Below are positions 3,103-60,990 of a stretch of DNA of 64,000 bases, one piece after another. A model generated the notes under the pieces. The model was not told the DNA's origin. It did no database searches and worked only from the letters and a program-made list of their open reading frames with translations. The translations under genes and the position numbers were made by a program. Every line of letters begins with the position of its first letter. The stretch's first letter is position 1. The stretch is from positions 160,001-224,000 of the forward strand of contig OZ219786.1 of the NCBI GenBank assembly GCA_964291285.2, in the 5' to 3' direction. Source of the stretch: Alphaproteobacteria bacterium. GTDB lineage: Bacteria > Pseudomonadota > Alphaproteobacteria > Bin95.

Positions 3103-3887
3103 GCGCGGAAATCGTCTTCGAGGTCCGGGACAGGGTCGGCCTCATCCGCCTCAACCGGCCGGAAAAGCTCAACGCCTTCACCAACTCCATGCTCGAAGAC
3201 TGGCTGGAGGCGCTGGACGAGGCGGAAGCCCGCGAGGATGTGCGCTGCCTCGTCATCACCGGCACGGGGCGCGGCTTCACCACCGGCGGCGATGTCTCGA
3301 CGATGGGAGGCGGGCAGGACAACAGCCCGAAGACCACGAAGGACCGCATCTGGGAGACGATCCAGGCGGTGCCGAAGCGGCTCGCCGGCATGGACACGCC
3401 AACGATCGCCGCCGTCAACGGCGTCGCCACGGGCGGCGGAGTGGATGTCGCGCTCGCCTGCGACATAAGGGTCTGCGCCGCCTCGGCGCGTTTTGCCGAG
3501 ACCTATGCCCGGCTGGGCCTCATTCCCGGCGCGGGCGGGGCCTATTTCCTGCCCCGCGCCGTGGGCGTGGCCCGCGCGCTGGAGCTGCTCTGGACAGCGG
3601 AGTTCATCGACGCGGAGACGGCCGAGCGCATCGGGCTCGTGAACCATGTCTATCCGGACGAGAGCTTCCTCGACGACGCGATGGCGCTTGCCGGGCGCAT
3701 CGTTGCCGCCGCGCCGCTCTCGGTGCGCTACATCAAGCGGACGGTCTATCGCTCGCTCGCCACCGACATGCTCACCAGCTTCGACCTCGTGTCCTCGCAC
3801 ATGACAGTCGTGCGCTCGTCCGAGGACCATGTCGAGGCCGTCGCGGCTTTCCGCGAGAAACGCACGCCCGACTTCAAGGGCCGTTGA
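3099..3887 (+). CDS. Enoyl-CoA hydratase/isomerase
   Basis: LNRPEKLNA, GFTTGGD, AAVNGVATGGG, EKRTPDFKGR; ATGA overlap with the upstream gene. Confidence 0.9.
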   Translation: MSAEIVFEVRDRVGLIRLNRPEKLNAFTNSMLEDWLEALDEAEAREDVRCLVITGTGRGFTTGGDVSTMGGGQDNSPKTTKDRIWETIQAVPKRLAGMDTPTIAAVNGVATGGGVDVALACDIRVCAASARFAETYARLGLIPGAGGAYFLPRAVGVARALELLWTAEFIDAETAERIGLVNHVYPDESFLDDAMALAGRIVAAAPLSVRYIKRTVYRSLATDMLTSFDLVSSHMTVVRSSEDHVEAVAAFREKRTPDFKGR

Positions 3888-44941: not shown

Positions 44942-45351
44942 CGGGACGCACCCACCTCGGCATTCTTGCCAAGCCCTTCCATTCGAGGCATATGTGACAT
45001 AAGCGGTTGCGTGGACACGATTATTTTAGTCCGCTAGATTGCGGCCATGGAACCCACAGTCGCCAAACGAGACAAGAGAGCGAGTGCTTACGATCCGTTT
45101 CGCACGCTCGCATTCCCGCTGCGCTTACGAGAAAATCGACCCGTTCCACCACAGGACGCCATCCGTCGAATGTAATGCTTCCGTTATCGGGTGATGGATT
45201 GAGATTTCAGCGATTGAGGGTTTGTTTCCAGTCTCGTTTCAGCGGGCGCAGCCAGATGTCCTTTCTGGGTTCGGCGCGCCTCATGAGGGTGTCGTAGCGG
45301 CCGTGCAAAGGCTTCTGGTAACGCCTTTGACGATTCGCTATTGTCGCGCGC

Positions 45352-47868
45352 ATGGCGATGCGCGACGGGGATTTCGGGACAGCGCTGGCGCTGCCGGAGG
45401 GGGAGGAGGCGATCTGGTCGCCTCCGATGTCGGCGGTGCCGAGCGAGCTGCGCGACTGGCGGGCGCGGGCGGAAGCGGCGGAAGCGCGTATCAAGGAGTT
45501 GCTCCGGACGGAGAGGGCCGCGCGTTCCCGGGCGGGTTCTCTGAAGTGGCAGCTCGACAGGAGCCGGACCAGGCTGAAGGCGGCCGTCGAGGAGACGGCG
45601 CGTATTCGCCGTGCGGCGAAGGATGCACTGTTCCATCAGGCGGAGGTGGCGCGGCTGGAGAAGCTGCTTGCGGAAGCCGGCGTCGATTCGAGAAAGGGCG
45701 CGAACGGACGACTGCGGAGGGAGAACGCCCGGCTGCACAAGGCGCTGGAGCGAGCGCAGGAGCAGAAGGACAAGATCGCGTCCTTGCGCGGGGAGATATC
45801 GGCGCTGCGGAAGTCGGAACGGGCGGCGCAGGCGTCCCTGTCGAGGGAAGGCGCCAGGTTGAGCAAAGCCCTGGAGCGGACGGACCGGCAGGAGGACATG
45901 ATCGAGGCGCTGCGCACGGAACTGCGCGAGGCGCACAAGGCAACAGCACGACTGGACAAGGAAGTCGCGCGGCTCGGCATGGAGGTCGCGGCGCTCGGCG
46001 AGGAGGCGTCGGCGTCGACGGTCCTGGCGGACGCGATCAAGGCGTTGCGCGCGGAGAATGCCGCCCTGCAGAAGACGGCGAGGGCCTTGGAGAGCCGGTG
46101 CAAATGGCTCGACAGCGAGAACGCCGATCTTCACTGGTCGATCGGAAAATCCCTGGAATATCGGCAGCGGCTCGAAGCCCGGCATCGCGACGAGACCGAC
46201 CGTCTGCACCGGGAGATTGCGCGGGAGCGTTCGTATCGTGCGCGGTCGTGGGAACGCCAACAGGCCGTCGTCGGGCCCCTGAGCAAGCGGCTTGTCCAGC
46301 ATCGCAAGGCGACCGTGCGGGCGAAGGACGTCATCGAATCGGTGCGCCGGCGCAACGCCCGACTGCGCACCGAGGTGCGGGAGTTGCGGGCCGAGAGGAC
46401 AGCGCTGGCCTCGCGCGCCGAGACGCTGGAAGCCCAGGTCGAGAAGCTGCGCTCGACCCGCAGCGTTCTGTCGAAGGCGCTGTTCGGCAGCAGGAGCGAG
46501 AAGCAGAAGAAAGCCGGCACGGGGCGCAAGCGCGGCCAGCAGCCCGGCGCGCCGGGCCACGGCCGTACCAGGCGGCCCGGTCTCCGGGAGAAGAAGGAAC
46601 GGCGCAACCCGCCCAAGGATGCGCGCCTCTGTTCCTGCTGCGGCAAGCCCTATGTCGCCAACGGCGAGCGTTCCACGAGCCTCATCGAGATCGAGGTCAA
46701 GGCTCACATCCGCAGGATCGAGCGGCCGCGCTGGCGCCGGGGTTGCGAGTGTGTGTCGTCGCCGCTGGAGGCGACCGCGCCGCCGGTGGCGCGGCTGTTC
46801 CCCGGAACGCTCTACGGAACCGGCTTCTGGGCACGGTTCCTGTTCGAGCACTGTGCGTGCCTGCGCCCGCTGAGCCGGGTCGCAGCGTGGTATGCCGACC
46901 AGGGCCTGCCGGTCTCGGCGGGCACGCTGGCCAACAGCCTGAAGCGCTTCGTGCCGCTGTTCGACCCGATCCACAAGGCGATCCTCGCGCATCAGAACCG
47001 GACAACGGTGCGCCATGCCGACGAGACCGGCTGGCGGGTGCAGGAGTTCCGCCGCAACGGCCGGTCGAGCCGCGCCTGGCTGTGGACTTCGGTCAGCAAG
47101 GACGCGGTCTACTTCCTTATCGATCCCTCGCGCAGCGCCGAGGTCGCGAAGACCCTGTTCGGCGACACCGATTGCACCGTGTTCGTGGTCTGCGACCGCT
47201 ACAGCGCCTACAGGAAGCTGGCGCGCGAACTCGACGGCAAGGCGATCCTCTGCTTCTGTTGGGCGCATCAGAGGCGCGACTTCGTCGAGGGCGCCGCCGG
47301 CCATGCGCGGCTGGCCCGCTGGTGCGAGGGATGGATCGAGCGGATCGGGGAGATCTACCGCCTGAACGACGAAAGGCTGAAGCATTACGACCCCGCTCGC
47401 GCTCTCGAACGCCAGACGCCGGCCTTCGACGCGGCGCAGGACAAGTTGAAGAAGGTGGTCGAGCGCCTGTTCGCGGACGCCGTGGCGGAGTTGGCCGGCC
47501 TGCCGGAAAAAGCGCGCAAGGCAAAGGCCCTGCGCTCGCTGCTCAAGCATCGCGAAGGGTTGTGCGTCTTCGTCGACAATCCCCAGGTTCCGATGGACAA
47601 CAATCTCGCCGAACGCGTGCTCCGCGGGCCGGTCATCGGACGCCGGGCGAGCTTCGGTTCCAACAGCGAGGACGGCGCGAAGTTCACCGCGATCATGTAC
47701 TCGGTCGTGGGTACGCTCTCGATCAACGGCATCAATGTCCTGCGCTGGCTGGAGGCATGGCTCGAAGCCTGCGCGAAGGACGGCGGCAAACCGCCGGAAG
47801 ACCTGTCCCCGTGGCTGCCCTGGACGATGAGCGAGGCGCGCAGGCGCAAGTTCACGGCGCAGGAATGA
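45352..47868 (+). CDS. IS66-family transposase (TnpC-like) with long N-terminal coiled coil
   Basis: LFGSRSEK, RGQQPGAPGH, CSCCG, HADETGW, CDRYSAY, CWAHQRRDF, DNNLAERVLR. Confidence 0.9.
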   Translation: MAMRDGDFGTALALPEGEEAIWSPPMSAVPSELRDWRARAEAAEARIKELLRTERAARSRAGSLKWQLDRSRTRLKAAVEETARIRRAAKDALFHQAEVARLEKLLAEAGVDSRKGANGRLRRENARLHKALERAQEQKDKIASLRGEISALRKSERAAQASLSREGARLSKALERTDRQEDMIEALRTELREAHKATARLDKEVARLGMEVAALGEEASASTVLADAIKALRAENAALQKTARALESRCKWLDSENADLHWSIGKSLEYRQRLEARHRDETDRLHREIARERSYRARSWERQQAVVGPLSKRLVQHRKATVRAKDVIESVRRRNARLRTEVRELRAERTALASRAETLEAQVEKLRSTRSVLSKALFGSRSEKQKKAGTGRKRGQQPGAPGHGRTRRPGLREKKERRNPPKDARLCSCCGKPYVANGERSTSLIEIEVKAHIRRIERPRWRRGCECVSSPLEATAPPVARLFPGTLYGTGFWARFLFEHCACLRPLSRVAAWYADQGLPVSAGTLANSLKRFVPLFDPIHKAILAHQNRTTVRHADETGWRVQEFRRNGRSSRAWLWTSVSKDAVYFLIDPSRSAEVAKTLFGDTDCTVFVVCDRYSAYRKLARELDGKAILCFCWAHQRRDFVEGAAGHARLARWCEGWIERIGEIYRLNDERLKHYDPARALERQTPAFDAAQDKLKKVVERLFADAVAELAGLPEKARKAKALRSLLKHREGLCVFVDNPQVPMDNNLAERVLRGPVIGRRASFGSNSEDGAKFTAIMYSVVGTLSINGINVLRWLEAWLEACAKDGGKPPEDLSPWLPWTMSEARRRKFTAQE

Positions 47869-48746
47869 CCGGCGCCGTCGAGTGCCGCTACTACGGGCGC
47901 GACTTCACCGCCGACGAGATGGCGTTGCTGCGCGCCCTGATCGCCGCCAACCCGCAGCCGACCCGCGCCGCCCTGTCCAGAGAGTTCTGCCGGCGTATCG
48001 AGTGGTTCAAGCCCGACGGCGGCCTCAAGGACATGATGGCCAAGGTGACCATGCTCGCCATGCACCGCGACGGCGTGATCGTCCTGCCGCCGCCGAGGGG
48101 AAAACAGGGCCGGCCCAGGCCCATCGTCTTCGGGCCCGACACCGAGCCGCCGCTGTTCCCGGCGCCGACGACCCTCGACGAGGTTCGCCCCCTCGACTTC
48201 CGCACGGTCGTGCGCGACACCCGCGATGGCAAGCTCTGGAACGAGTTCGTCGCCCGCTACCACTATCTCGGATACAAGCCCCTGGTCGGCGCCCAGATGC
48301 GCTACGCCGTCCATGACCGGAACGGCTGGCCGCTGGCCATGCTCGGCTTCTCCACCGCCGCATGGAAGCTCGCCTCGCGCGACAGCTTCATCGGATGGTC
48401 GCCCGAGATGCGCGAAAAGAACCTGCCGCTGGTGGTCGACAACCCGCGCTTCCTGATATTGCCGTGGGTCGAGATCCCCAATCTCGGCTCGCACATCCTC
48501 GCCATCGTGCGACGGCGCCTGCCCACCGACTGGACCGAGCGCTACAACATCACGCCCGTGCTCATCGAGACCTTCGTCGAAACGCCCCGCTACTCCGGCG
48601 CCGTCTACAAGGCGTCGGGCTGGACCCGCGTCGGGACCACTCAGGGACGCGGCCGCTACGACACCCTCATGAGGCGCGCCGAACCCAGAAAGGACATCTG
48701 GCTGCGCCCGCTGAAACGAGACTGGAAACAAACCCTCAATCGCTGA
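47865..48746 (+). CDS. DUF4338 (Druantia DruA-like) domain protein, 293 aa
   Basis: WNEFVARYHYLGY, GAQMRY, RDSFIGW, NPRFLILPWV..PNLGS, ETFVE, YKASGW..VG.T.GRGR; ATGA-coupled to the transposase. Confidence 0.8.
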   Translation: MTGAVECRYYGRDFTADEMALLRALIAANPQPTRAALSREFCRRIEWFKPDGGLKDMMAKVTMLAMHRDGVIVLPPPRGKQGRPRPIVFGPDTEPPLFPAPTTLDEVRPLDFRTVVRDTRDGKLWNEFVARYHYLGYKPLVGAQMRYAVHDRNGWPLAMLGFSTAAWKLASRDSFIGWSPEMREKNLPLVVDNPRFLILPWVEIPNLGSHILAIVRRRLPTDWTERYNITPVLIETFVETPRYSGAVYKASGWTRVGTTQGRGRYDTLMRRAEPRKDIWLRPLKRDWKQTLNR

Positions 48747-48924
48747 AATCTACATCCATCACCCGAGAACGGAAGCATTACCGTCGAATCCGGTTCGGCG
48801 AGGCCGTGACGGAGGGAGCGATGGCGCAGACCGAATTCGGACCGGACCTGCCGGAACGCGGAGCCGGCATCGTCGTTTTCGTCGTCGCCATGACCGAACG
48901 CCCTCGTCTCCGGAGCAGGACGCC

Positions 48925-50106
48925 ATGACGCAACGCCAGTACCGCACCCTCTCCAAGCGTATCGTCGACAGTCTCCCCGTCGATGGCAGGGACACCGTCT
49001 ACTGGGACCGCGAGCTGCCCGGTTTCGGCCTGCGCGTCTACGCGAGCGGCAAAAAGGTCTTCGTCGTCCAGACGCGAGCCTTCGGCCGTTCCAGGCGCGT
49101 GACCCTCGGCGAGCACGGCAACCCGTTCTCCGCCGACCGGGCCCGCAAGGAGGCCGCTGAGGTCATCGTCCGCATCAAGACGGGGCAGCCGCCGATACCG
49201 AAGGACCCGGCCAACGATCCCACCGTCGCCGACCTCGCGGACCGCTACTTCAGAGAACATGTCGAGATGCACTGCAAGCCGGCCACCGTCTCCCACTACC
49301 GGATCATGCTGCGCAAGCACATCGTGCCCGCCCTCGGCGGGCGTCTCGTCGCGGAGGTCGAGCACAAGGACATCCTGCGCTTCCACGACGCGCTGCATCA
49401 CAGCCCCAGTGTCGCCAACCGGGCGGCCGACATTCTGGTCAAGATGTTCAATCTGGCCGACGAGTGGGGCTGGTGTCCCTCGGGGCGCAACCCGGCCCGG
49501 AGCGTGCCCCGTTTCAGGGTCGAGAAGCACGAGCGCTTCCTCACCCGCGAGGAACTCTCCCGGCTCGGCGAGGCGCTCAGGGCCGCGCCCGCCGGGCGCC
49601 GGGCGTCCCCCCATGCGGCGGCCGCCATCTACCTTCTCGTGCTGACCGGATGCCGGCGCAACGAGATCCTCGGCCTGCGGTGGGACGACCTCAACTTCGA
49701 CACTGGCGAGATGCGGCTGCGCGACTCCAAGACCGGCGCGCGGATGACGCCGATGCCGGCAAGGGTGGCCGCAGTGTTCGCCGGCCTTCCCCGCACGCCC
49801 GGCAATCCCTGGGTCTTCCCCGGCAGGAAGAAGGGCGCGCACCTGGTCAACCTCAACGACTCCTGGGAGCGCATCCGCAAGGACGCCGGTCTCGACGGCG
49901 TCCGCCTGCACGACTTGCGCCACACCTTCGCTTCCAGGGCGCTCGCGCTGGGCGAGGGCCTGGCGATGATCGGCGACCTGCTCGGCCACCGCAAGGTGAG
50001 CACCACCGCGCGTTACGCCCACCTCGCGCGGGACTCGGTGCGGGTGTCCTCGGCCCGGGTCGCCGCCGACATCGGCGCCAGGATCATGGCGCCGGACGGC
50101 CGCTAG
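48925..50106 (+). CDS. Tyrosine integrase A1 (arm-binding plus catalytic domains)
   Basis: YWDRELPGFGLRV, LTGCRRNE, SKT, HDLRH, LGH, TARY. Confidence 0.93.
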   Translation: MTQRQYRTLSKRIVDSLPVDGRDTVYWDRELPGFGLRVYASGKKVFVVQTRAFGRSRRVTLGEHGNPFSADRARKEAAEVIVRIKTGQPPIPKDPANDPTVADLADRYFREHVEMHCKPATVSHYRIMLRKHIVPALGGRLVAEVEHKDILRFHDALHHSPSVANRAADILVKMFNLADEWGWCPSGRNPARSVPRFRVEKHERFLTREELSRLGEALRAAPAGRRASPHAAAAIYLLVLTGCRRNEILGLRWDDLNFDTGEMRLRDSKTGARMTPMPARVAAVFAGLPRTPGNPWVFPGRKKGAHLVNLNDSWERIRKDAGLDGVRLHDLRHTFASRALALGEGLAMIGDLLGHRKVSTTARYAHLARDSVRVSSARVAADIGARIMAPDGR

Positions 50107-50143
50107 AGCGCCCGCGTCAAGGCGTACTCCGGAAGGACACTCC

Positions 50144-51346
50144 ATGCACAGCACCAACAAGCTCACCCTGTCCAGACAGTCCGTCGACCGGCTTCCCGTC
50201 GCCGACCGGGAGATCGTCTACTGGGATCGCCACCTGCCCGGCTTCGGCGTGCGCGTCTATGCGACCGGGTCGAAGGTCTACATCGCGCACGCGCGTTCCG
50301 GCGGGAAGACCCGGCGCGTCACCATCGGCCGTCATGGCGCATGGTCGACCGAGCGCGCCCGGCGCGAGGCCGGAGCGCTGATCGCGGATATCAAGGCGGG
50401 CAGGACGCCGGGCCGTCCCGGCGCGGACTCCGCGTCCGCCACCGGACCGACGATCGCCGGGCTGGCGGACGACTACATGACCCGGCACGTGGCCCTGCGC
50501 TGCAAGCCGTCCACGCAGCGATCCTGCCGCCATATCCTCGACAGATTCCTCCTCCCCCGGTTCGGGGCGCTGCGCGTCGGCGAGATCACGCCCGATCACG
50601 TTGCCGCGCTGCACTACCGGCTCCGCGAGACGCCCATCATGGCGAACCAGACGGTCTCCCTGCTGTCGCGGCTCTTCCTGAGGGCCGCGGCCTCGGGCAA
50701 CGCGCCGCCCGGCGGCAACCCCTGCCGGTTCATCAGGAAGTATCCGGCGCGAAGCCGCGAGCGCTTCCTGTCCGAGCAGGAATACGACCGGTTGGGCGCC
50801 GCGCTCGACGAACTCGAAGGCGCCGGCCGGGTTCTTGCCAGCGCCGCCGCGGCGATCCGCCTGCTGATGCTGACCGGCTGCCGGCGCAACGAAATCCTCA
50901 CCCTCAAATGGGAGGATGTCGACCTCGAACATGACGAGCTCCGGTTGCGCGACGCGAAGACCGGAGCGCGCGCGGTTCCGCTGTCGCCGACGGCGAGAGG
51001 AGTGCTCACCGCCATCCCCCGGCAGCCCGGCAATCCCTGGGTCATCTTCGGGCGCGAACCCGGAACGCACCTCGCCAATCTCAACTCGTCGTGGCAGGTG
51101 GCCCGCCGCGAGGCCGGACTCGAGGACATGCGGCTTCACGACCTTCGCCACAGCTTTGCCAGCAGGGCGCTCGCGCTCGGCGAGAGCCTGCCGACGATTG
51201 CCCGGCTCCTCGGCCACAGCCAGATCCAGACCACCGCCCGCTACGCCCACCTTGCACGGCAACCGGTGAAGACCGCCGCCGCCACCGTCGCGGACAGCCT
51301 CGCGGACGACATGGGGCCGGCGCCCGGCGCTCCCTCCATCACCTGA
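50144..51346 (+). CDS. Tyrosine integrase A2
   Basis: YWDRHLPGFGVRV, LTGCRRNE, AKT, HDLRH, LGH, TARY. Confidence 0.93.
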   Translation: MHSTNKLTLSRQSVDRLPVADREIVYWDRHLPGFGVRVYATGSKVYIAHARSGGKTRRVTIGRHGAWSTERARREAGALIADIKAGRTPGRPGADSASATGPTIAGLADDYMTRHVALRCKPSTQRSCRHILDRFLLPRFGALRVGEITPDHVAALHYRLRETPIMANQTVSLLSRLFLRAAASGNAPPGGNPCRFIRKYPARSRERFLSEQEYDRLGAALDELEGAGRVLASAAAAIRLLMLTGCRRNEILTLKWEDVDLEHDELRLRDAKTGARAVPLSPTARGVLTAIPRQPGNPWVIFGREPGTHLANLNSSWQVARREAGLEDMRLHDLRHSFASRALALGESLPTIARLLGHSQIQTTARYAHLARQPVKTAAATVADSLADDMGPAPGAPSIT

Positions 51347-52016: not shown

Positions 52017-53697
52017 GGGTGCAGGTCCCGTATGGCGATTGCAACCATTTGATTTATTGAGATTTTATGTTCTTTTCGGATGGCCTTTGGGGTCGATCGG
52101 TGACAATCGGGGTTTCGGGGTCGGGATTTTGTCACGGCCGCTCGGTGGCAGGGCCGGAAGCGGGACCGCTCCGCCCGCCGGAGGCGGGTAGGATGTCGTT
52201 CTGAAGCAACCGCAACCACAGGAGCGGCCCCATGGCAGTTTCGCAGTCTGCATCCTGCTCGTCCATCGATCTTGCCGGCTTGCCGGCTCGGATACTGGAG
52301 GCGCTGTCGGGGCTGGTTGCGGTTTGTCGTGAGCCGCCTGCTTCCGCGCCATGCGCGGTTGCATTCGAGGAAGCGGAGCTTCGTGTTCGGGAGAGCGTGA
52401 ACGCGCTGGGTTGCGAGGTTCCGGGAGCTTGGGTGGAAGGTCTGGACGACGGGGCGTTGCGGGTCGAGCAGGCCGGGCAACGCCGGTTCCGTGTGGCGGC
52501 GACGCCGAAGACGATCATGAGCACGCTCGGCCCGGTGACCTACAGGCGGGCGCGCTATCGCCACGGCGTGGGCGGCCCCTCGCTCGTGCCGGTGGACGAG
52601 AGCCTGGGGCTGGTGAACGACTGGCTGACGCGCCCGGCCGCCCGGATCGGGCTGATGATGATGGGTCACGGCACGGCGCGGGAAGCGGAGGGGTTCTTCT
52701 CGGAGATGGGCGCCATGAGGCCGTCGGCGAGCACCTTGCAGCGGCTCGCCTGCAGCCTGCATGAGCGCTGGGAGAGCCTGGGGCCGCAGGCGCTGGACAG
52801 TATCCGCAGCACGGAAGACATCCCATCCGGGGCGGTCAGCGCCTCGGTCTCGCTCGACGGCGTCATGGTGGCGCTGCGCGCCGGCGAGGACGGGCGCGAC
52901 GAGGCCTGCTGGCGCGAGGCCGCCTGCGGCACGGTCTCCTTCCACGACGCCCAAGGCGAACGGCTCAAGACCCTCTACTTCGCCCGCATGCCGGAGAGCG
53001 GCAAGCCCACGCTGAAGGCCCAACTCGCAAGCGAGGTCGCGCATATCCGCCGCGCGCGCCCCGATATCGCGGTCGTTGCGCTCGCCAGAGCCTGCCCCTG
53101 CGAAGGCGGGGGGCGCCCCCGACAACTGGACCTTCCTGGAGAGCCTCTCGCCCGAGGCCGAGGCCGTCGACTTCTGGCACGCCTGCGAGCATCTCCGCAC
53201 AGCCTCCGACCATGCCGTCGATCCCCGCTGGTTCGAGACTTACCGCCATACCCTGCGTCATGACCCGTGCGGCGTCGCCAAGGTGACCCGGGCGCTGCGC
53301 TATCTGCGCGACAAGGCAGGCAGCAACCGCACCGCGCGCAACGCCATCGAGCGCGAACTCGCCTTCTTCTGCAAGCACCGCAAGCGCATGCGATACCGCA
53401 ACCTCAGCGACCGGGGCATCACCATCGGCTCCGGCGTTGTCGAGGCCGCAAACAAAACCCTCGTCACACAGAGGATGAAGCGCTCCGGCATGCGATGGCG
53501 CATCGCCGGCGGCCAGGCCGTCCTCACCGTCCGCGCCCTCATCAAATCCGGACGCTTCGACCGCGCATGGAATGCCCTCATGAGCGATGACGATATCCCC
53601 GCAAACGAAAACAACCGCACCGGAAACCAACAAAGCCGCGCCGCATGAACCCTGACCCTCAGCCCAGCGCCATCATCGCCATACGAGATTCACGCCC
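52017..53697 (+). mobile_element. ISKra4-like insertion sequence
   Basis: Imperfect IRs GGGTGCAGGTCCCGTATGGCGAT / GGGCGTGAATCTCGTATGGCGAT; no TSD found. Confidence 0.75.
52232..53648 (+). pseudogene. ISKra4-like transposase frameshifted by a ~25-bp palindromic insertion
   Basis: SLDGVMV, DFWHACEH, IGSGVVEAANK, RMKRSGMRW; the frame changes at 53087-53111 where the DGA motif is expected. Confidence 0.8.
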
Positions 53698-54415: not shown

Positions 54416-55535
54416 CCAGCGGGCATAGTTCAGAACCCATTGGCCCATTTTCGGGTTCCGATGGAGGCGATGCGTTCTGGTTGTGAGACGAGATTGTTCC
54501 AGGCCTGGCAGCAGTGATCGAGTATGTCGTCGTAGTTCTGGAAGACGCGGTTCGAGAGCCAATTTTCGCGCATGAACTGCCAGACATTCTCGACGGGATT
54601 GAGCTCGGGGGACCGGGGCGGGAGCGGCATCAGGGTTATGTTGTCGGGGACTTTGAGGGCCGGGGATGTGTGCCATCCGGCCCGGTCGAGCATGACGAGG
54701 GCATGGGCTCCGGGTTCAACGGTGAGGGCGACCTCGGCGAGGTGGGCGTTGAGTGCCTCCGTGTTGGCGTGGGGCATGACGAGGCCGGCGGCCTTGCCCT
54801 TCTGCGGGCATATGGCGCCGAAGATGTAGGCCGAGATGGTTCTCTGGTCCTTGGGCGCTGACGGTCGGGTGCCGCGTTTAGCCCATCGCCGGGTGATCTT
54901 GTTCTTCTGCCCGACGCGCGCCTCGTCCTGCCACCAGACTTCGACCTCGACGCCGTCGCCGAGTGCAGCGCGGATCTCCTTCAGGCGGTCGGGGAAGTTT
55001 TTTTGAACCCTGCCAGCGCGGCTTCGTCCCGGGCATGGTGGCGCGGGCGCGCAGACAGCCTGGCGTAGCCCATCCGGCGCAACTCCCGCCCGACCGTCGT
55101 CTCCGCCAACGAGATGCCGAACTGCTCGCTGAGCCATGCCGCCAGGTCGCAGCGCCGCCACCGCACCACGCCGTGGATCGCCGGGTCCGGACCGCTCTCC
55201 ACAACCGCCGCCAGCGCCGCGCGCTGCTCCCCGTTCAACTTGCGCGGCGGACCTGAGGCCTTGCGATCCTTCAATCCCTCCGGGCCTTCCGCGTTGAAGC
55301 GAAGAACCCAGTCCCGGATGATCTGCAAGCCCACCCCCGCAAAACGCGCCGCATCCGAACGACGGTAACCGTCGTAAATCACCGCAAGCGCAAGAAGGCG
55401 ACGGTTCTGCGAACCATCCCGGCTCCGCTGCGCAAGCCGCGCAACTGCGCCGCATCAAAATCCTCCCTCAAGGGGATTGCTGCCCTCATAACGACCCTCC
55501 AATCGCAGAATCGCTATTGAGTCAGAACTCGATAA
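54416..55535 (-). mobile_element. IS630-family element, left end truncated
   Basis: TA at 54414-54415 followed by CCAGCGG; no matching far end before the next IS starts at 55536. Confidence 0.75.
54430..55489 (-). pseudogene. IS630 transposase with a programmed -1 frameshift site and an extra frameshift near 55440
   Basis: WWQDEARVGQK, LDRAGWH, SPELNPVE; slippery A7C near 55000. The ATG at 55489 is out of frame with IYDG. Confidence 0.8.
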
Positions 55536-58047
55536 CCTCAGACTTCCTGACCTCGTGACGATGTTTGTTGCGGGCGGCGTTCTGGGAACTTTTTGAGTTC
55601 GGTTCATTTTTCGTCTGTTTCGGCTGATTTTCGCTGGCTGCCGTGTCCAGGTTCGGGTATTTTAATTTGACACTGGATACGAGATTTCAACCATGTCGAT
55701 TACCCTTCCCCTGAGCCCTCCGGAGGCGGTTCCGATCGGCAGCAGTTGTTTCGCCATTCTGATTTCGGACGACAGCTTCACCTACTTCTCCAACCTCGTT
55801 CCCTTTGACAGCCACGCCGCCGATGACCGCGCGGCCATGCTGTTGCGGATCGGCCGCCTGGCTGCGATCAGCGCGGTCTCGCGGCAGGATCTGGCCGACG
55901 CTTTCGGTGTCTCGCGTGCAACGGTCCAGCGCGCACGACGGCGCTACCTGGCCGAGGGCGAAGCGGAGTTTCTGAAGCCCCGGCGCGGTCGGGGACCTTC
56001 GGTGTTCACGCCGGAGCTGGCGGAGAAAGCGACGGCGTTGCTGGAAGGGGGCCTGAGCGGCTCTGCGGTGGCCCGAGTTCTCGGCGTGTCAGCGCCGTCG
56101 GTCAACAAGTGGCGGCGGCAGGGGGTGATCGGCAACGCGGAGGCGTGTCGGGAGCGCGGCAGCGCGGCAGTGGCGGTGCCGCCTGACGCGGGTGGGGCGC
56201 CCGAGGGCAGTGTCGATGACGAGAGTGCCGGTGCCGCCGGGCCGGCGACGGCAGCGGGGCTGGAGGCGCAGACGGATCGCAGCGCGCGCGACCGGCGGGA
56301 CCGGCAGGCGCCGATGGGGCGCGCGACTTGCGATGTCCGGGCTCGGGTGTTGGCCAGCTGCGGGCAGGCGGGACCGGTCGAACCGCAGTTCACCGCCGCC
56401 GCCCGCGGCGTGCGCTTTGGCGGCGTTCTCGCCGCCCTGCCGGCCCTGCTGAAGGAAGGCCTGCTCTGCGAGACCGGCCTCCTGCCGTTGCTGTCGAAGG
56501 GCTACTACGGCCTGCCCACGATCCTGCTCTTCCTGGCCTTCATGACCCTGGCGCGGGTGCGCAACCCCGAGAGCCTGCGCTACCAGGCACCGGGCGAATG
56601 GGGTGCGGTTCTCGGTCTCGACCGCTGCCCCGAGGTCAAGACGCTACGGCGCAAGATCGGGCTCATGGCCAACGACGAAGCCAGCGTGCAGGCGTGGCAG
56701 CTCGCTCTTGCGAGACGCTGGCAGGAGGAGGAGCCCGAGCTCTGGGCGACGCTGGCCGTTGACGGGCACGTCAAGGTCTACGCCGGCCGCAAGGGGCGCC
56801 TGCCCAAACACTTCGTCTCGCGCGAGAAGCTGTGCCTGCCGGCGAGCACCAGCTACTGGATCAACGCCTTGGGCGGCAAGCCCCTGCTGTGCCTGCACAA
56901 GCCGCTGGACCCGAAGATGGTCGCCGCGATCGAATCCGACGTGGTGCCGGCGTTGCAGGCGCTCGGGATCGTCGACGCCGGGGCAGCGGACCTGACCGCC
57001 GGGCAGCCCGGCCAGCCCGTGCTCACACTGGTCTTCGACCGCGAGGGCTGGAGCCCGGAGCTGTTTCGCCGGCTGGCCAGGCGCGGCATTGCCTGCCTGA
57101 CCTGGCACAAGAACTTCAGGGGCGGGGACTGGCCGGCCGAGGACTTCAGTGCGATGATCGTTCCCATTCACGGACCCGCGGCGAACGCCAGCGCCACCAT
57201 GCTGCTGGCCGAGAAGCCGGTGACGTTGAAGAACGGCTTCAGGGTGCGCCAGATCCGCCGCCTGCTCGACAACGGCCGTCAGGTTCCGCTGGTCACCACC
57301 GATCCGCACAAGCCGGTGGCGGAGGCCGCAGGCGCCTTGTTCTCGCGCTGGTCGCAGGAAAACTTCTTCAAATACATGCGCGACGAGTTCAATCTCGACG
57401 CCCTGCCGACCCACGAGATCGAGCCTCTCGCTGCCGATACCATGGTCGTCAGCCCGCTGCGGCGGGCCTACGACAAGGCAATCCGCCGCCTCGACCACCA
57501 GCTTGGCCGCCTGCGCAACCGCATCGCCGACGCCGCCCACAGGAAGCAGCCGACGGGCGAACTCAAGAGGGAACTCAGGGACCTCGAGGGCGGCCGTGAG
57601 ATTGTCAGATCCAGCCGCAGGGAGGTGCCCACGCACTGCCGGGCCGGCGACCTCGACGAAGCCGGACAGCTCAATGCCTTGCCCTCACGCGAGCGCCTCC
57701 TACTCGACATCATCCGCATGATCGCCTACCGCGCTGAAACCCGCTTGATGCTTCCCGTCATGCAGGCGCAGGGCCACAAGCCCCACCCACGGAAACTGCT
57801 TCAGGCACTCTTCACCGCCGATGCCGACATCCTGCCGGACCCTGCCAACGGCGTCCTGCGGGTCCGCATTCTCGGCCTCGCAAATGACGCCTGCGACCGC
57901 CAGATCAAGCCTCTTCTGGCCGAACTCAACGCCACCGAAACGCACTTCCCCGGCAACCGTATGCGCATGGTCTACGAGGTCGGCATAACCCCAAAATCCG
58001 CGCGCACCGGTGCCAAACAAAATTAGCAGAGGTCAGGAAGTCTGAGG
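55536..58047 (+). mobile_element. Unclassified IS with 19-bp perfect terminal inverted repeats
   Basis: CCTCAGACTTCCTGACCTC at 55536-55554 and its reverse complement at 58029-58047 enclose one long ORF; no TSD. Confidence 0.85.
55693..58026 (+). CDS. Putative DDE transposase with two N-terminal HTH regions, 777 aa
   Basis: HTH-like SRQDLADAFGVSRATV and GSAVARVLGVSAPSV; VDGHVK, VFDREG, RWSQENFFK. Confidence 0.75.
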   Translation: MSITLPLSPPEAVPIGSSCFAILISDDSFTYFSNLVPFDSHAADDRAAMLLRIGRLAAISAVSRQDLADAFGVSRATVQRARRRYLAEGEAEFLKPRRGRGPSVFTPELAEKATALLEGGLSGSAVARVLGVSAPSVNKWRRQGVIGNAEACRERGSAAVAVPPDAGGAPEGSVDDESAGAAGPATAAGLEAQTDRSARDRRDRQAPMGRATCDVRARVLASCGQAGPVEPQFTAAARGVRFGGVLAALPALLKEGLLCETGLLPLLSKGYYGLPTILLFLAFMTLARVRNPESLRYQAPGEWGAVLGLDRCPEVKTLRRKIGLMANDEASVQAWQLALARRWQEEEPELWATLAVDGHVKVYAGRKGRLPKHFVSREKLCLPASTSYWINALGGKPLLCLHKPLDPKMVAAIESDVVPALQALGIVDAGAADLTAGQPGQPVLTLVFDREGWSPELFRRLARRGIACLTWHKNFRGGDWPAEDFSAMIVPIHGPAANASATMLLAEKPVTLKNGFRVRQIRRLLDNGRQVPLVTTDPHKPVAEAAGALFSRWSQENFFKYMRDEFNLDALPTHEIEPLAADTMVVSPLRRAYDKAIRRLDHQLGRLRNRIADAAHRKQPTGELKRELRDLEGGREIVRSSRREVPTHCRAGDLDEAGQLNALPSRERLLLDIIRMIAYRAETRLMLPVMQAQGHKPHPRKLLQALFTADADILPDPANGVLRVRILGLANDACDRQIKPLLAELNATETHFPGNRMRMVYEVGITPKSARTGAKQN

Positions 58048-58615: not shown

Positions 58616-59740
58616 ATGGCGAAGACTACCCTCACCGAAACGCGCGTGAAGGCGCTCAAGCCCCGCAAGTCGGTCCGCGAGGTCCGCGACGGCAGGCTGA
58701 GGGGCTTCGGCGTCCGTGTGTCGCCCTCGGGCCGCAAGCAGTTCTTCATCCACTGCCAGCATCGCGGCGCGCGCATCTGGAAGATCGTCGGCGACGCCGC
58801 GTCCATGAGCGTCACGGACGCGCGGGCGGCGGCTGCGGAGATGCTGGCCGCCATCAGGCGCGGCGGGGAGGCGCCGCTCACGCCGGACGAAACGCTCTTC
58901 GAGGCCGTCGCCGGGATCGCGTTCCGCCGTCACGAGGGCGTCTGGAAGCCCGGAACGATGATCGTGAACCGCAACTATCTGTGCAACCAGCTTCTGCCGC
59001 ATTTCGCCGGGCGGCAGATCGCGGCCATCGACCGGCAGGAGGTGAGGAACTGGTTCGCCCGCCTGCGCGCGACGCCGGTGGCGGCGGACCGGTCGATGCC
59101 GGTGCTGTCCGTCATCATGAGGGAGGCGGAAGCCATGGGCCTGCGCCCGGAAGGGTCCAACCCCTGCCGGGGGATCAGGCGCTACCGCCGCAAGGGCCGC
59201 GAGCGGTTCCTCTGCGCCGACGAACTGCGCCGCCTGTCCGCGCGGCTCAAGGCGCATGAGGCCCGCTGGCCGCAGCATGTCGCCGTCATCCGCCTGCTGC
59301 TGCTGACCGGATGCCGCAAGGGCGAGATCCTCACCCTGCAATGGTCCGACTACCGGGAAGGCCGCCTGTTCCTCCGCGACTCCAAGACGGGCCCCCGGAC
59401 GGTCTGGCTCTCCGAACCGGCCCGGACGGTGCTTGATCGTCTCGAGCGGAAGGGGCGGTGGATATTCCCGGCATCGAGGGGCGACCGGCCCCGGAGCGGG
59501 TGCTGGCTGTTCCACTTCTGGAACCGGGTCCGCGCCGAGGCGGACCTGGAGGACGCCCGCCTTCACGACCTGCGCCATACGCATGCGAGCCTTGCCCTGA
59601 GACAGGGCGAGACGGTGCTCGCCATCGGCCGGCTGCTGGGCCACCGCAGGCCGGAAACCACGCTGAAATATACCCATGTCGCCGACGCCATGGTGCAGGA
59701 CGCAGCCGAGACGGTCGGCGCCGTGCTGGAGGCAGACTGA
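58616..59740 (+). CDS. Tyrosine integrase B1
   Basis: LRGFGVRV, LTGCRKGE, SKT, HDLRH, LGH, TLKY. Confidence 0.93.
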   Translation: MAKTTLTETRVKALKPRKSVREVRDGRLRGFGVRVSPSGRKQFFIHCQHRGARIWKIVGDAASMSVTDARAAAAEMLAAIRRGGEAPLTPDETLFEAVAGIAFRRHEGVWKPGTMIVNRNYLCNQLLPHFAGRQIAAIDRQEVRNWFARLRATPVAADRSMPVLSVIMREAEAMGLRPEGSNPCRGIRRYRRKGRERFLCADELRRLSARLKAHEARWPQHVAVIRLLLLTGCRKGEILTLQWSDYREGRLFLRDSKTGPRTVWLSEPARTVLDRLERKGRWIFPASRGDRPRSGCWLFHFWNRVRAEADLEDARLHDLRHTHASLALRQGETVLAIGRLLGHRRPETTLKYTHVADAMVQDAAETVGAVLEAD

Positions 59741-60885
59741 TGGCGGGCCGGGAACGGATGAAACTCACCGACGCCGCCGTCGCCCGTCTCCGCCCCCGCG
59801 AGCGGGAATATACGGTCCGGGACACGCGCATCGCCGGCCTTGGCGTCCGGGTGCGGCCCACCGGCGGGCGCAGCTGGGTGCTGCTGCTCGACAGCGGCGG
59901 GCGCACGAAGCGCATCTCGCTCGGCCCGGTCGGCGTGAAGAGCCTGGAGGAGGTGCGCAGGGAATGCCATGCCCGCAAGGCGAACCCCGAGCCGGAGAAA
60001 GAGGCCCGGCCGGCGCGGCCGGTCCCGCTGTTCCGGGATTTCGTCACCGGTCCATGGAAGGAGGCGCATTTCGACGGCTACAAGCCCTCGACGCAGAGGA
60101 CCGCCCGCTATCAGCTTGCGGGCCAGCTCCTGCCGGCATTCGGATCGAAGCCGCTGGACCGCATCGGCGAGGCCGCCATCCGGCGCTGGTTCGAGCGATA
60201 CAGCCGCACCGCGCCGGGCAACGCCAATCACTGCCTTGCCCGTCTGCGGCAGATACTCAACTTCGCCCTCGCCTGCGGCCACATCGAGGTCAATCCCGTC
60301 GGGCGCATCGCCCCGAACCGCCGCACGGCGCTCACGCGGTTCCTGTCCCGGGAGGAACTCGCACGCCTCCATGCCGCCCTGGACGCGCAGACCCGGAAGA
60401 GCGCGCGGCAACAGGCCGACATCGTCCGCCTCCTGCTGCTGACCGGCTGCCGCAGAAGCGAGATCACGGGCCTCGGCTGGTCGGAAGTCCGCGAGGACGG
60501 GCTGGCGCTCACCGATGCCAAGACCGGACCGAGGACGGTTCCACTCAACAGACAGGCCCGCGCCATTCTCGACCGGCAGACGCGCGCGGGCAGCGCGTTC
60601 GTGTTTCCCTCGCCGTGCGACCCCGCCCGCCCGCGCAGCCCGGACCTGCCGCTCTGGTACCGCGTCAGACGCGAAGCCGGCATCGGGGATGTCCGCCTTC
60701 ATGACCTGCGCCATACCATGGCCAGCCATGCGGTGATGAACGGCGTGCCCGTCCCGGTGGTCTCCCGCCTGCTCGGCCATTCCAGTGTGCGCATGACGCT
60801 GCGCTACGCCCATCTTGCCGACCGCGACATCGAGGCCGCCGCGGAACGCGTCGGGCAGGCCATGAGCGCCATCATGGAGACATGA
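59740..60885 (+). CDS. Tyrosine integrase B2
   Basis: TGATG overlap with B1; AGLGVRV, LTGCRRSE, AKT, HDLRH, LGH, TLRY. Confidence 0.93.
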   Translation: MAGRERMKLTDAAVARLRPREREYTVRDTRIAGLGVRVRPTGGRSWVLLLDSGGRTKRISLGPVGVKSLEEVRRECHARKANPEPEKEARPARPVPLFRDFVTGPWKEAHFDGYKPSTQRTARYQLAGQLLPAFGSKPLDRIGEAAIRRWFERYSRTAPGNANHCLARLRQILNFALACGHIEVNPVGRIAPNRRTALTRFLSREELARLHAALDAQTRKSARQQADIVRLLLLTGCRRSEITGLGWSEVREDGLALTDAKTGPRTVPLNRQARAILDRQTRAGSAFVFPSPCDPARPRSPDLPLWYRVRREAGIGDVRLHDLRHTMASHAVMNGVPVPVVSRLLGHSSVRMTLRYAHLADRDIEAAAERVGQAMSAIMET

Positions 60886-60990
60886 CCGGGGCGGCCGCGA
60901 CCGGCCCGCTTCTTCATGAGCGAATGGCGCCGGTCTTCTTCCTGCGCCGCACCCGGTGACGGTGAGGTTCCCTGCTATCGGCGTGTCCGG

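Follow-up and report, generated by a model that had tools for sequence, protein, structure and literature searches.

A two-gene element of the IS66 family and its mobility

The stretch analysed here, called the window, is 64,000 nucleotides of contig OZ219786.1 (positions 160,001 to 224,000) in the assembly GCA_964291285.2 of an Alphaproteobacteria bacterium, whose genome comprises 5 contigs, 6.13 Mb and 68% G+C. Positions 45172-48781 of the window are occupied by an insertion sequence (IS) of the IS66 family, 3,610 bp long, in which the transposase gene tnpC is followed by a gene encoding a protein of the DUF4338 family, and it is the role of this second gene that is considered below. The element, its ends and its target are arranged as follows, in window coordinates:

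45164..45171, no strand: left 8-bp target-site duplicate, CGTCGAAT, which occurs only once in each empty site of this genome
45172..45303, forward strand: left terminal inverted repeat, 132 bp, beginning GTAATGC, a reverse-complement copy of the right end
45352..47868, forward strand: tnpC, an IS66-family DDE transposase of 838 amino acids (PF03050, NF033517)
47865..48746, forward strand: DUF4338 gene, 293 amino acids (PF14236, E 4e-38), its start overlapping the tnpC stop (ATGA)
48650..48781, reverse strand: right terminal inverted repeat, 132 bp, terminating GCATTAC, overlapping the 3' end of the DUF4338 gene
48782..48789, no strand: right copy of the target-site duplication, CGTCGAAT, from the same empty-site comparison
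48925..51346, forward strand: target context, two tandem tyrosine-integrase genes of 393 and 400 amino acids, with PF00589 and Arm-DNA-bind_3 in both

The two genes are the only long forward open reading frames (ORFs) of the element and fill it, with 180 bp upstream of tnpC and 35 bp after the DUF4338 gene. These distances leave no room for tnpA or tnpB, and neither gene was found within the element by the ORF list or by tblastn with a TnpB. An earlier sequence-only reading of the window had described this gene content, the ATGA coupling and a DUF4338 3' end inside the right repeat, all of which hold; it was also right that inverted repeats are present, but they are much longer than it had implied. 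The 132-bp repeats are 98% identical in the window copy and 100% identical in the copies on contigs C4 and C5. The right repeat takes in the final 97 bp of the DUF4338 gene, of which the left repeat contains a non-coding mirror copy. The long repeats arose in the element's own lineage by replacement of the left tip with a copy of the right end. Among the relatives described below, locus L016 has repeats of 144 bp, and L011 and L017 have a mirror copy of the gene's final ~30 codons upstream of tnpC; since the long-repeat state recurs in these three loci, it is stable and compatible with movement.

Canonical members of the IS66 family, such as IS66 and IS679, carry tnpA, tnpB and tnpC. The element resembles them in its DDE transposase, in repeats that begin with GTAA (GTAAGCGTTCGG in its relatives) and in its 8-bp target duplication, but it differs in the absence of tnpA and tnpB and in the presence of an extra conserved gene (with a weakly winged-helix-like part and a GNAT part), of a coiled-coil arm of ~390 amino acids on the transposase and of the 132-bp repeats. 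The ISBst12 group of the same family has a single ORF, tnpC only. The element shares with this group the absence of both tnpA and tnpB, but its second gene, conserved, translationally coupled and enclosed by the repeats, means that it is not a single-ORF element.

In TnpC, residues ~397-806 form the zinc-finger and DDE core (PF03050 at residues 486-777, E 9e-57; NF033517 at residues 397-806, E 1e-84, 284.5 bits for a cut-off of 180), and the CxxC/CxC cysteines and the acidic residues are invariant in 29 relatives. Residues 1 to ~390 gave weak matches of coiled-coil type only and make up the unusually long arm.

Four copies of the element, differing by 0-3 bases, are present in the source genome on four contigs. 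Those on C2 (the window copy), C5 and C4 are flanked by 8-bp duplications (CGTCGAAT, TCCGGTTC and CCTCCGGC, respectively), and the target is found twice in intact form on contig C3, with CGTCGAAT present once and flanks identical to those of the interrupted site for more than 120 bp in either direction. The element has moved as one unit, as the sequence-only reading had deduced from the GTAA/TTAC ends and the intact duplication, and has been active recently. The copy on C1 (C1:98833-102442) has no target duplication and an unrelated left flank, and its right end adjoins the target found upstream of the integrase genes, in the same 15-bp stretch and in inverse orientation, which suggests that this copy was probably rearranged, by IS-mediated deletion or by recombination. 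A contig joint spanning the element (from 45162 to 48781 in X1, with a near variant in X2; four sequencing runs) was considered as a sign of polymorphism and rejected: the genome's own uninterrupted target copies explain it, so that it provides no independent sign of polymorphism.

The window copy lies ~140 bp upstream of the first tandem integrase gene, in an integrase element that is itself repeated in the genome. The C5 copy occupies a different repeat of this region, at a point 7 bp further on. Three of the four copies thus fall within one 15-bp stretch, CGTCGAATCCGGTTC, and were counted as three independent insertions. By eye, CGTCGAATCCGGTTC contains a near-palindrome around CCGG, and the TTCGGCG just downstream of it is the heptamer of the terminal repeats of relatives (GTAAGCGTTCGGCG in L025 and L026). 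Judged from these sequences, the element may target sites that resemble IS66-type ends. In other genomes an integrase gene lies just downstream of the element in only 3 of 69 assessable loci, and a general preference for integrase-upstream sites was accordingly rejected, the preference being confined to the sub-lineage of the window element. In three further loci (L015, L019 and L056), integrase genes abut the left end in inverse orientation, as judged by eye with no set distance cut-off; all six integrase-adjoining loci, three counted and three seen by eye, belong to closer relatives.

The transposase-DUF4338 pair in relatives and beyond IS66

To place the gene pair among its relatives, a pattern scan based on a 12-row alignment was run on one genome per species and matched at least 599 stretches, 591 of which encode a relative. 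The 80 loci examined are the best 80 of these 591, a choice that is biased to the near kin of the query and inflates the share of IS66; they come from Alpha- and Gammaproteobacteria, Acidobacteriota, Gemmatimonadota, Thermodesulfobacteriota, Spirochaetia, Bacillota and others. An IS66 transposase gene is located directly upstream of the DUF4338 gene in 74 of them (73 by tblastn and L075 by Pfam), and the remaining loci are three with a Tn5-type transposase upstream, two relics without a partner and one at a contig edge. Stop-start overlaps (ATGA, GTGA or TTGA) were observed at 62 of 73 transposase-DUF4338 junctions. GTA..TAC ends were recognised in 33 of 61 assessable elements, with the DUF4338 stop 25-90 bp inside the right end, and perfect 8-bp duplications flank 26 of these 33.

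The DUF4338 gene is under purifying selection, with a ratio of nonsynonymous to synonymous substitution rates (dN/dS) of 0.09-0.42 in all 14 comparisons, and its product is consistently better conserved than the transposase core (e.g., 0.88 versus 0.70 in L014). The pairwise identities of the two proteins are correlated (r = 0.95 for 1,225 pairs from 50 elements, a value inflated by relatedness). Their trees, built from 48 distinct elements, have 17 of 43-45 splits in common, against at most 3 in 1,000 label shuffles, and for the 31 closest elements 11 of 28 splits are in common, against at most 2 after shuffling. The gene pair is inherited together and its second gene is kept under selection. 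The co-phylogeny of TnpC-DUF4338 pairs that the sequence-only reading had put forward as a check is therefore found, though in part, and its view of DUF4338 as a built-in component is borne out by the enclosure of the gene within the repeats of this element and of 33 relatives, by the overlaps, by the co-divergence and by the selection.

Among the 80 loci, only L082 has a tnpB homologue upstream of tnpC (3577-3864, by tblastn) in addition to the DUF4338 gene; tnpA was not found in this locus. The DUF4338 gene is an added module and not a strict substitute for tnpA/tnpB, because L082 retains tnpB and because other lineages have the gene upstream of the transposase or fused to it. The proposal that it replaces tnpA/tnpB was thus correct as to their absence from the window element, but too strong as to replacement. 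As side observations on the relatives, L025 (3803-12789) contains three head-to-tail copies of a related element with a 3,397-bp period and L024 contains two copies head to head; such arrays may reflect tandem IS multimers or misassembly.

In the source genome, all 24 PF14236 matches are inside IS elements, which belong to three species with 4, 8 and 12 copies. The second species, of ~3.2 kb and 8 copies, is 81% identical in nucleotides to the window element over its final ~2.4 kb and has the same two-gene design, with a TnpC of 721 amino acids and a partner of 293 amino acids; its repeats are 24 bp long, and at least 4 of its copies show 8-bp duplications. The third, of ~2 kb and 12 identical copies (e.g., C2:233319-235124, ~9 kb beyond the window end; locus L121:829-2625), has a single ORF of 598 amino acids that joins the DUF4338 GNAT portion to an ISAs1-type transposase (PF14236, DDE_Tnp_1_assoc and DDE_Tnp_1). 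This fusion is without the N-terminal domain sequence: its PF14236 match starts at residue 36 of the protein and position 67 of the profile. Two right-end variants of the third IS were seen.

Beyond these elements, the DUF4338 family comprises 8,387 clusters at 50% identity (E <= 0.001), 980 of them at E <= 1e-30. Fusions to the C-terminus of an IS66 transposase (P0175, P0192) and to the N-terminus of a Tn5-type transposase (P0223, P0233, P0242) were found. When the DUF4338 protein was compared with a plasmid collection by tblastn, only 2 records were retrieved, one a fusion annotated as an ISAs1-family transposase and the other a DUF4338 gene adjoining an integrase-IS91 pair; megablast of the whole element against the same collection gave no match. 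In a sample of the phylum, a match was present in 21 of 301 genomes. Ten proteins from the loci of these 21 genomes, either encoded by partner genes beside the match or by longer ORFs containing it, were scanned and correspond to (i) UPF0236-type transposases downstream of the gene (two cases) and a Tn5-type transposase (one); (ii) IS66 transposases with the gene upstream, that is, in the opposite order (two); (iii) a Tn5-type fusion and an ISAs1-type fusion (one each); and (iv) three long proteins of 680-1,043 amino acids which are not linked to transposons.

Fold of the DUF4338 protein and its proximity to Mom

The DUF4338 protein was predicted by AlphaFold with a pLDDT (predicted local distance difference test) of 91.5. 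In this model, the C-terminal domain (residues ~103-293) adopts a GNAT fold, and the small N-terminal domain (residues ~1-75) consists of three helices that are weakly winged-helix-like. The family has already been called GNAT in a published analysis, in the context of DndF fusions (PMC10853773). An exhaustive structural search with the model placed Mom of phage Mu first (8bv8_B, Z 14.4, root-mean-square deviation 3.4 over 165 aligned residues), the next GNAT reaching 12.6; a Z of 8 or higher was reached by over 200 GNAT chains. By Foldseek, 223 matches were obtained at E <= 0.001, of which all listed but one are acetyltransferases, and Mom ranks ninth among them. The Pfam family of Mom (PF25680) is matched by 16 of 39 relatives, with a best E of 2.3e-4 and no other GNAT family among the matches, and in a protein-atlas cluster of the family 12% of the members are labelled Mom.

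According to PMC13219725, Mom modifies adenine in double-stranded DNA by means of Gly-tRNA, with a putative active site made of H58, Y59, R111, S124, D149, R151 and Y159; R111, S124 and R151 were shown to be essential, variants of H58, Y59, W48 and Y159 have drastically reduced activity, and D149 is cited there from earlier work. The hhalign comparison pairs W125 with W48, H133-Y134 with H58-Y59, S209 with S124, E239 with D149 and Y248 with Y159 (family/Mom), in an alignment that is weak (E 0.02-0.03, probability ~2%). In the family alignments H133 is invariant, W125, S209 and Y248 are nearly invariant, and E239 is E or D at the family's TFV[ED] position. The pairings of R195 with R111 and of R242 with R151 are read from the spacing and are not those of the aligner. 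A sequence search of solved structures with the family profile gave nothing below E 0.99.

The DUF4338 protein resembles Mom as its top structural match, and residues conserved in the family are putative counterparts of W48, H58-Y59, S124, D149 and Y159. In addition, each of the two genes is carried by a transposable element and located at its right end. It differs from Mom in that it is without the helix-turn-helix (HTH)-like insertion and has the N-terminal helical domain instead, in that sequence similarity is marginal, and in that it is coupled or fused to transposases. A prediction of the complex between the TnpC core (449 amino acids, 29-row alignment) and the DUF4338 protein (39-row alignment) gave a score of 0.00 and a mark of 0.32, which counts neither for nor against an interaction.

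Possible roles of the DUF4338 protein

Taken together, these data lead us to the view, to which we assign a probability of roughly 0.6, that the element is an autonomous and recently active IS66-family IS in which the DUF4338 protein is a dedicated transposition accessory enzyme and not defence cargo. A dedicated function is preferred because DUF4338 is found fused to transposases of three families, is translationally coupled to TnpC, diverges with it and is more strongly conserved than it. Of the two roles envisaged by the sequence-only reading, a transposition cofactor or a stand-alone defence cargo, the data favour the first over the second. The DUF4338 protein would assist or control transposition by acting at the DNA alongside the transposase, its small N-terminal domain probably binding DNA and its enzymatic domain transferring an acyl or aminoacyl group either to a base of a nucleic acid, in the way that Mom modifies adenine in double-stranded DNA, or to the transposase. 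Such a transfer could mark or protect the DNA of the element or of its target, or could tune activity. The acyl chemistry, directed at a base or at a protein and possibly dependent on tRNA, is an inference, and so is the choice between a protein that helps transposition and one that restrains it.

Several observations weigh against this interpretation. Those which concern the likeness to Mom are that the window protein has no match to PF25680 at E <= 1, that the hhalign link is weak at the sequence level, that R195 is placed by spacing, and that the HTH-like insertion which is essential in Mom (residues ~175-209) corresponds to a 23-residue gap in the alignment. The best matches of the N-terminal domain are winged-helix/HTH proteins, but they are non-significant (Z <= 5.1, Foldseek E > 0.6) and too weak for the fold to be named winged-helix, an assignment that was rejected. 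With regard to the role in transposition, members of the ISBst12 group, which are IS66 relatives, transpose with TnpC as their only protein, so that the chemistry may not require the partner, and nine canonical IS66 tnpB genes are present elsewhere in the source genome and could act in trans. The domain also functions in proteins that do not belong to transposons, namely long ones of the DruA type and DndF/SspF-like ones. As to the linkage of the two genes, the 80 loci favour near kin, the correlation of identities owes part of its height to relatedness, and the congruence of the trees is clear but partial, some exchange between elements being likely.

A first alternative is that the DUF4338 gene is cargo with no role in transposition, of advantage to the host or to the element once transferred, either as a stand-alone DruA-related defence gene or as a Mom-like anti-restriction enzyme acting on the DNA of the cell or of the element. 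Pfam classes DUF4338 under DruA, and the window protein shares the superfamily PF14236 with DruA of type I Druantia (131.7 bits, cut-off 27), but it is 293 amino acids long, against ~680 for DruA. With the PADLOC DruA model (PDLC00001/2) it reached 18.6 bits (E 2e-4), whereas the three long proteins of the phylum sample reached 967, 592 and 384 bits in the same scan, one of them being also a weak SspF/DndF match; BLASTP against one true DruA gave E 0.004 over 53 amino acids. PF09369 (DUF1998/MZB), the hallmark domain of DruE, has no match in the source genome, which is 100% complete, and matches 8 of 14 control genomes, and no Druantia operon surrounds the DUF4338 gene, whose neighbours are the transposase and the integrases. 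The window protein was therefore rejected as an orthologue of Druantia DruA, and the term DruA-like used by the sequence-only reading is kept at the level of the superfamily but not as orthology. Cargo of either kind would be in agreement with the protection of Mu DNA from restriction by Mom (PMC7261163 and PMC13219725), with the presence of the domain in genuine DruA proteins and in defence proteins that resemble DndF/SspF (PMC10853773) and with the 2 of 80 loci that retain the gene without an adjacent transposase. However, cargo genes are not usually fused to three transposase families, overlapped by the transposase gene at most junctions or better conserved than the transposase across phyla, and every copy in this genome is inside an IS element, so that we consider cargo unlikely.

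A second alternative, which in our judgement has a comparably low probability, is that the DUF4338 protein is a brake that acylates the transposase or a host factor, or that represses the promoter of the element through its N-terminal domain. GNAT enzymes, to which the fold matches point, commonly acylate proteins, translational coupling would fix the ratio of transposase to regulator, and the copy numbers of the two-gene elements are modest (4 and 8). The conserved residues nevertheless fit the nucleic-acid-modifying constellation of Mom better than a typical acetyl-CoA site, the Pfam Mom family is the only other family matched, and a brake would be easily lost, yet the gene is better conserved than the transposase. 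An addiction or toxin-like module that stabilises the element in its host, for example a GNAT acylating charged tRNA like TacT or AtaT, is highly unlikely: Mom and GNAT toxins both handle aminoacyl-tRNA (PMC13219725), but no antitoxin-like partner gene fits in an element filled by two ORFs, 24 copies coexist in one genome, and fusion to transposases is not expected of a toxin.

A wider proposal, which we regard as doubtful, is that DDE transposition widely involves a Mom-type acyltransferase that has so far escaped recognition. This enzyme would accompany, or be fused to, transposases of at least four families (IS66, Tn5-type IS4, ISAs1-type and UPF0236-type) and would covalently modify bases at element ends or target sites, possibly by means of a charged tRNA as in the case of Mom, as a part of the transposition cycle or a control on it; type I DruA and some DndF proteins would have been co-opted from it for defence.

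The surroundings of the element provide additional observations. The genome has ~40 tandem tyrosine-integrase pairs that are 30-37% identical to the window pair, besides 4 near-identical copies of that pair, and its two-integrase elements form an unusually large family with examples in the window at 48925-51346 and 58688-60894. The region downstream of the element is an IS-rich patch, with a weak UPF0236 match at 52232-53263, a DDE_3-type transposase gene of 342 amino acids at 54430-55458 on the reverse strand, and a 777-amino-acid Transposase_29 (PF21804) with several HTH motifs at 55693-58026 on the forward strand.

A literature search covering titles and abstract openings found no paper that reports an insertion sequence with an internal DUF4338 gene. 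NCBI names a close relative 'DUF4338 domain-containing protein', the label that annotation pipelines apply in general, and the automatic names of Pfam and of the protein atlas refer to DruA, which creates a risk of false defence-system calls inside insertion sequences. The present element would be an IS66 element with a built-in accessory enzyme other than the products of tnpA and tnpB, from a very large family. The likeness to Mom offers a concrete and directly testable chemical hypothesis for this enzyme, and may provide a lead on the role of DruA in type I Druantia. The recurrence of the module with unrelated transposases suggests a general function in transposition that is missing from textbook models.

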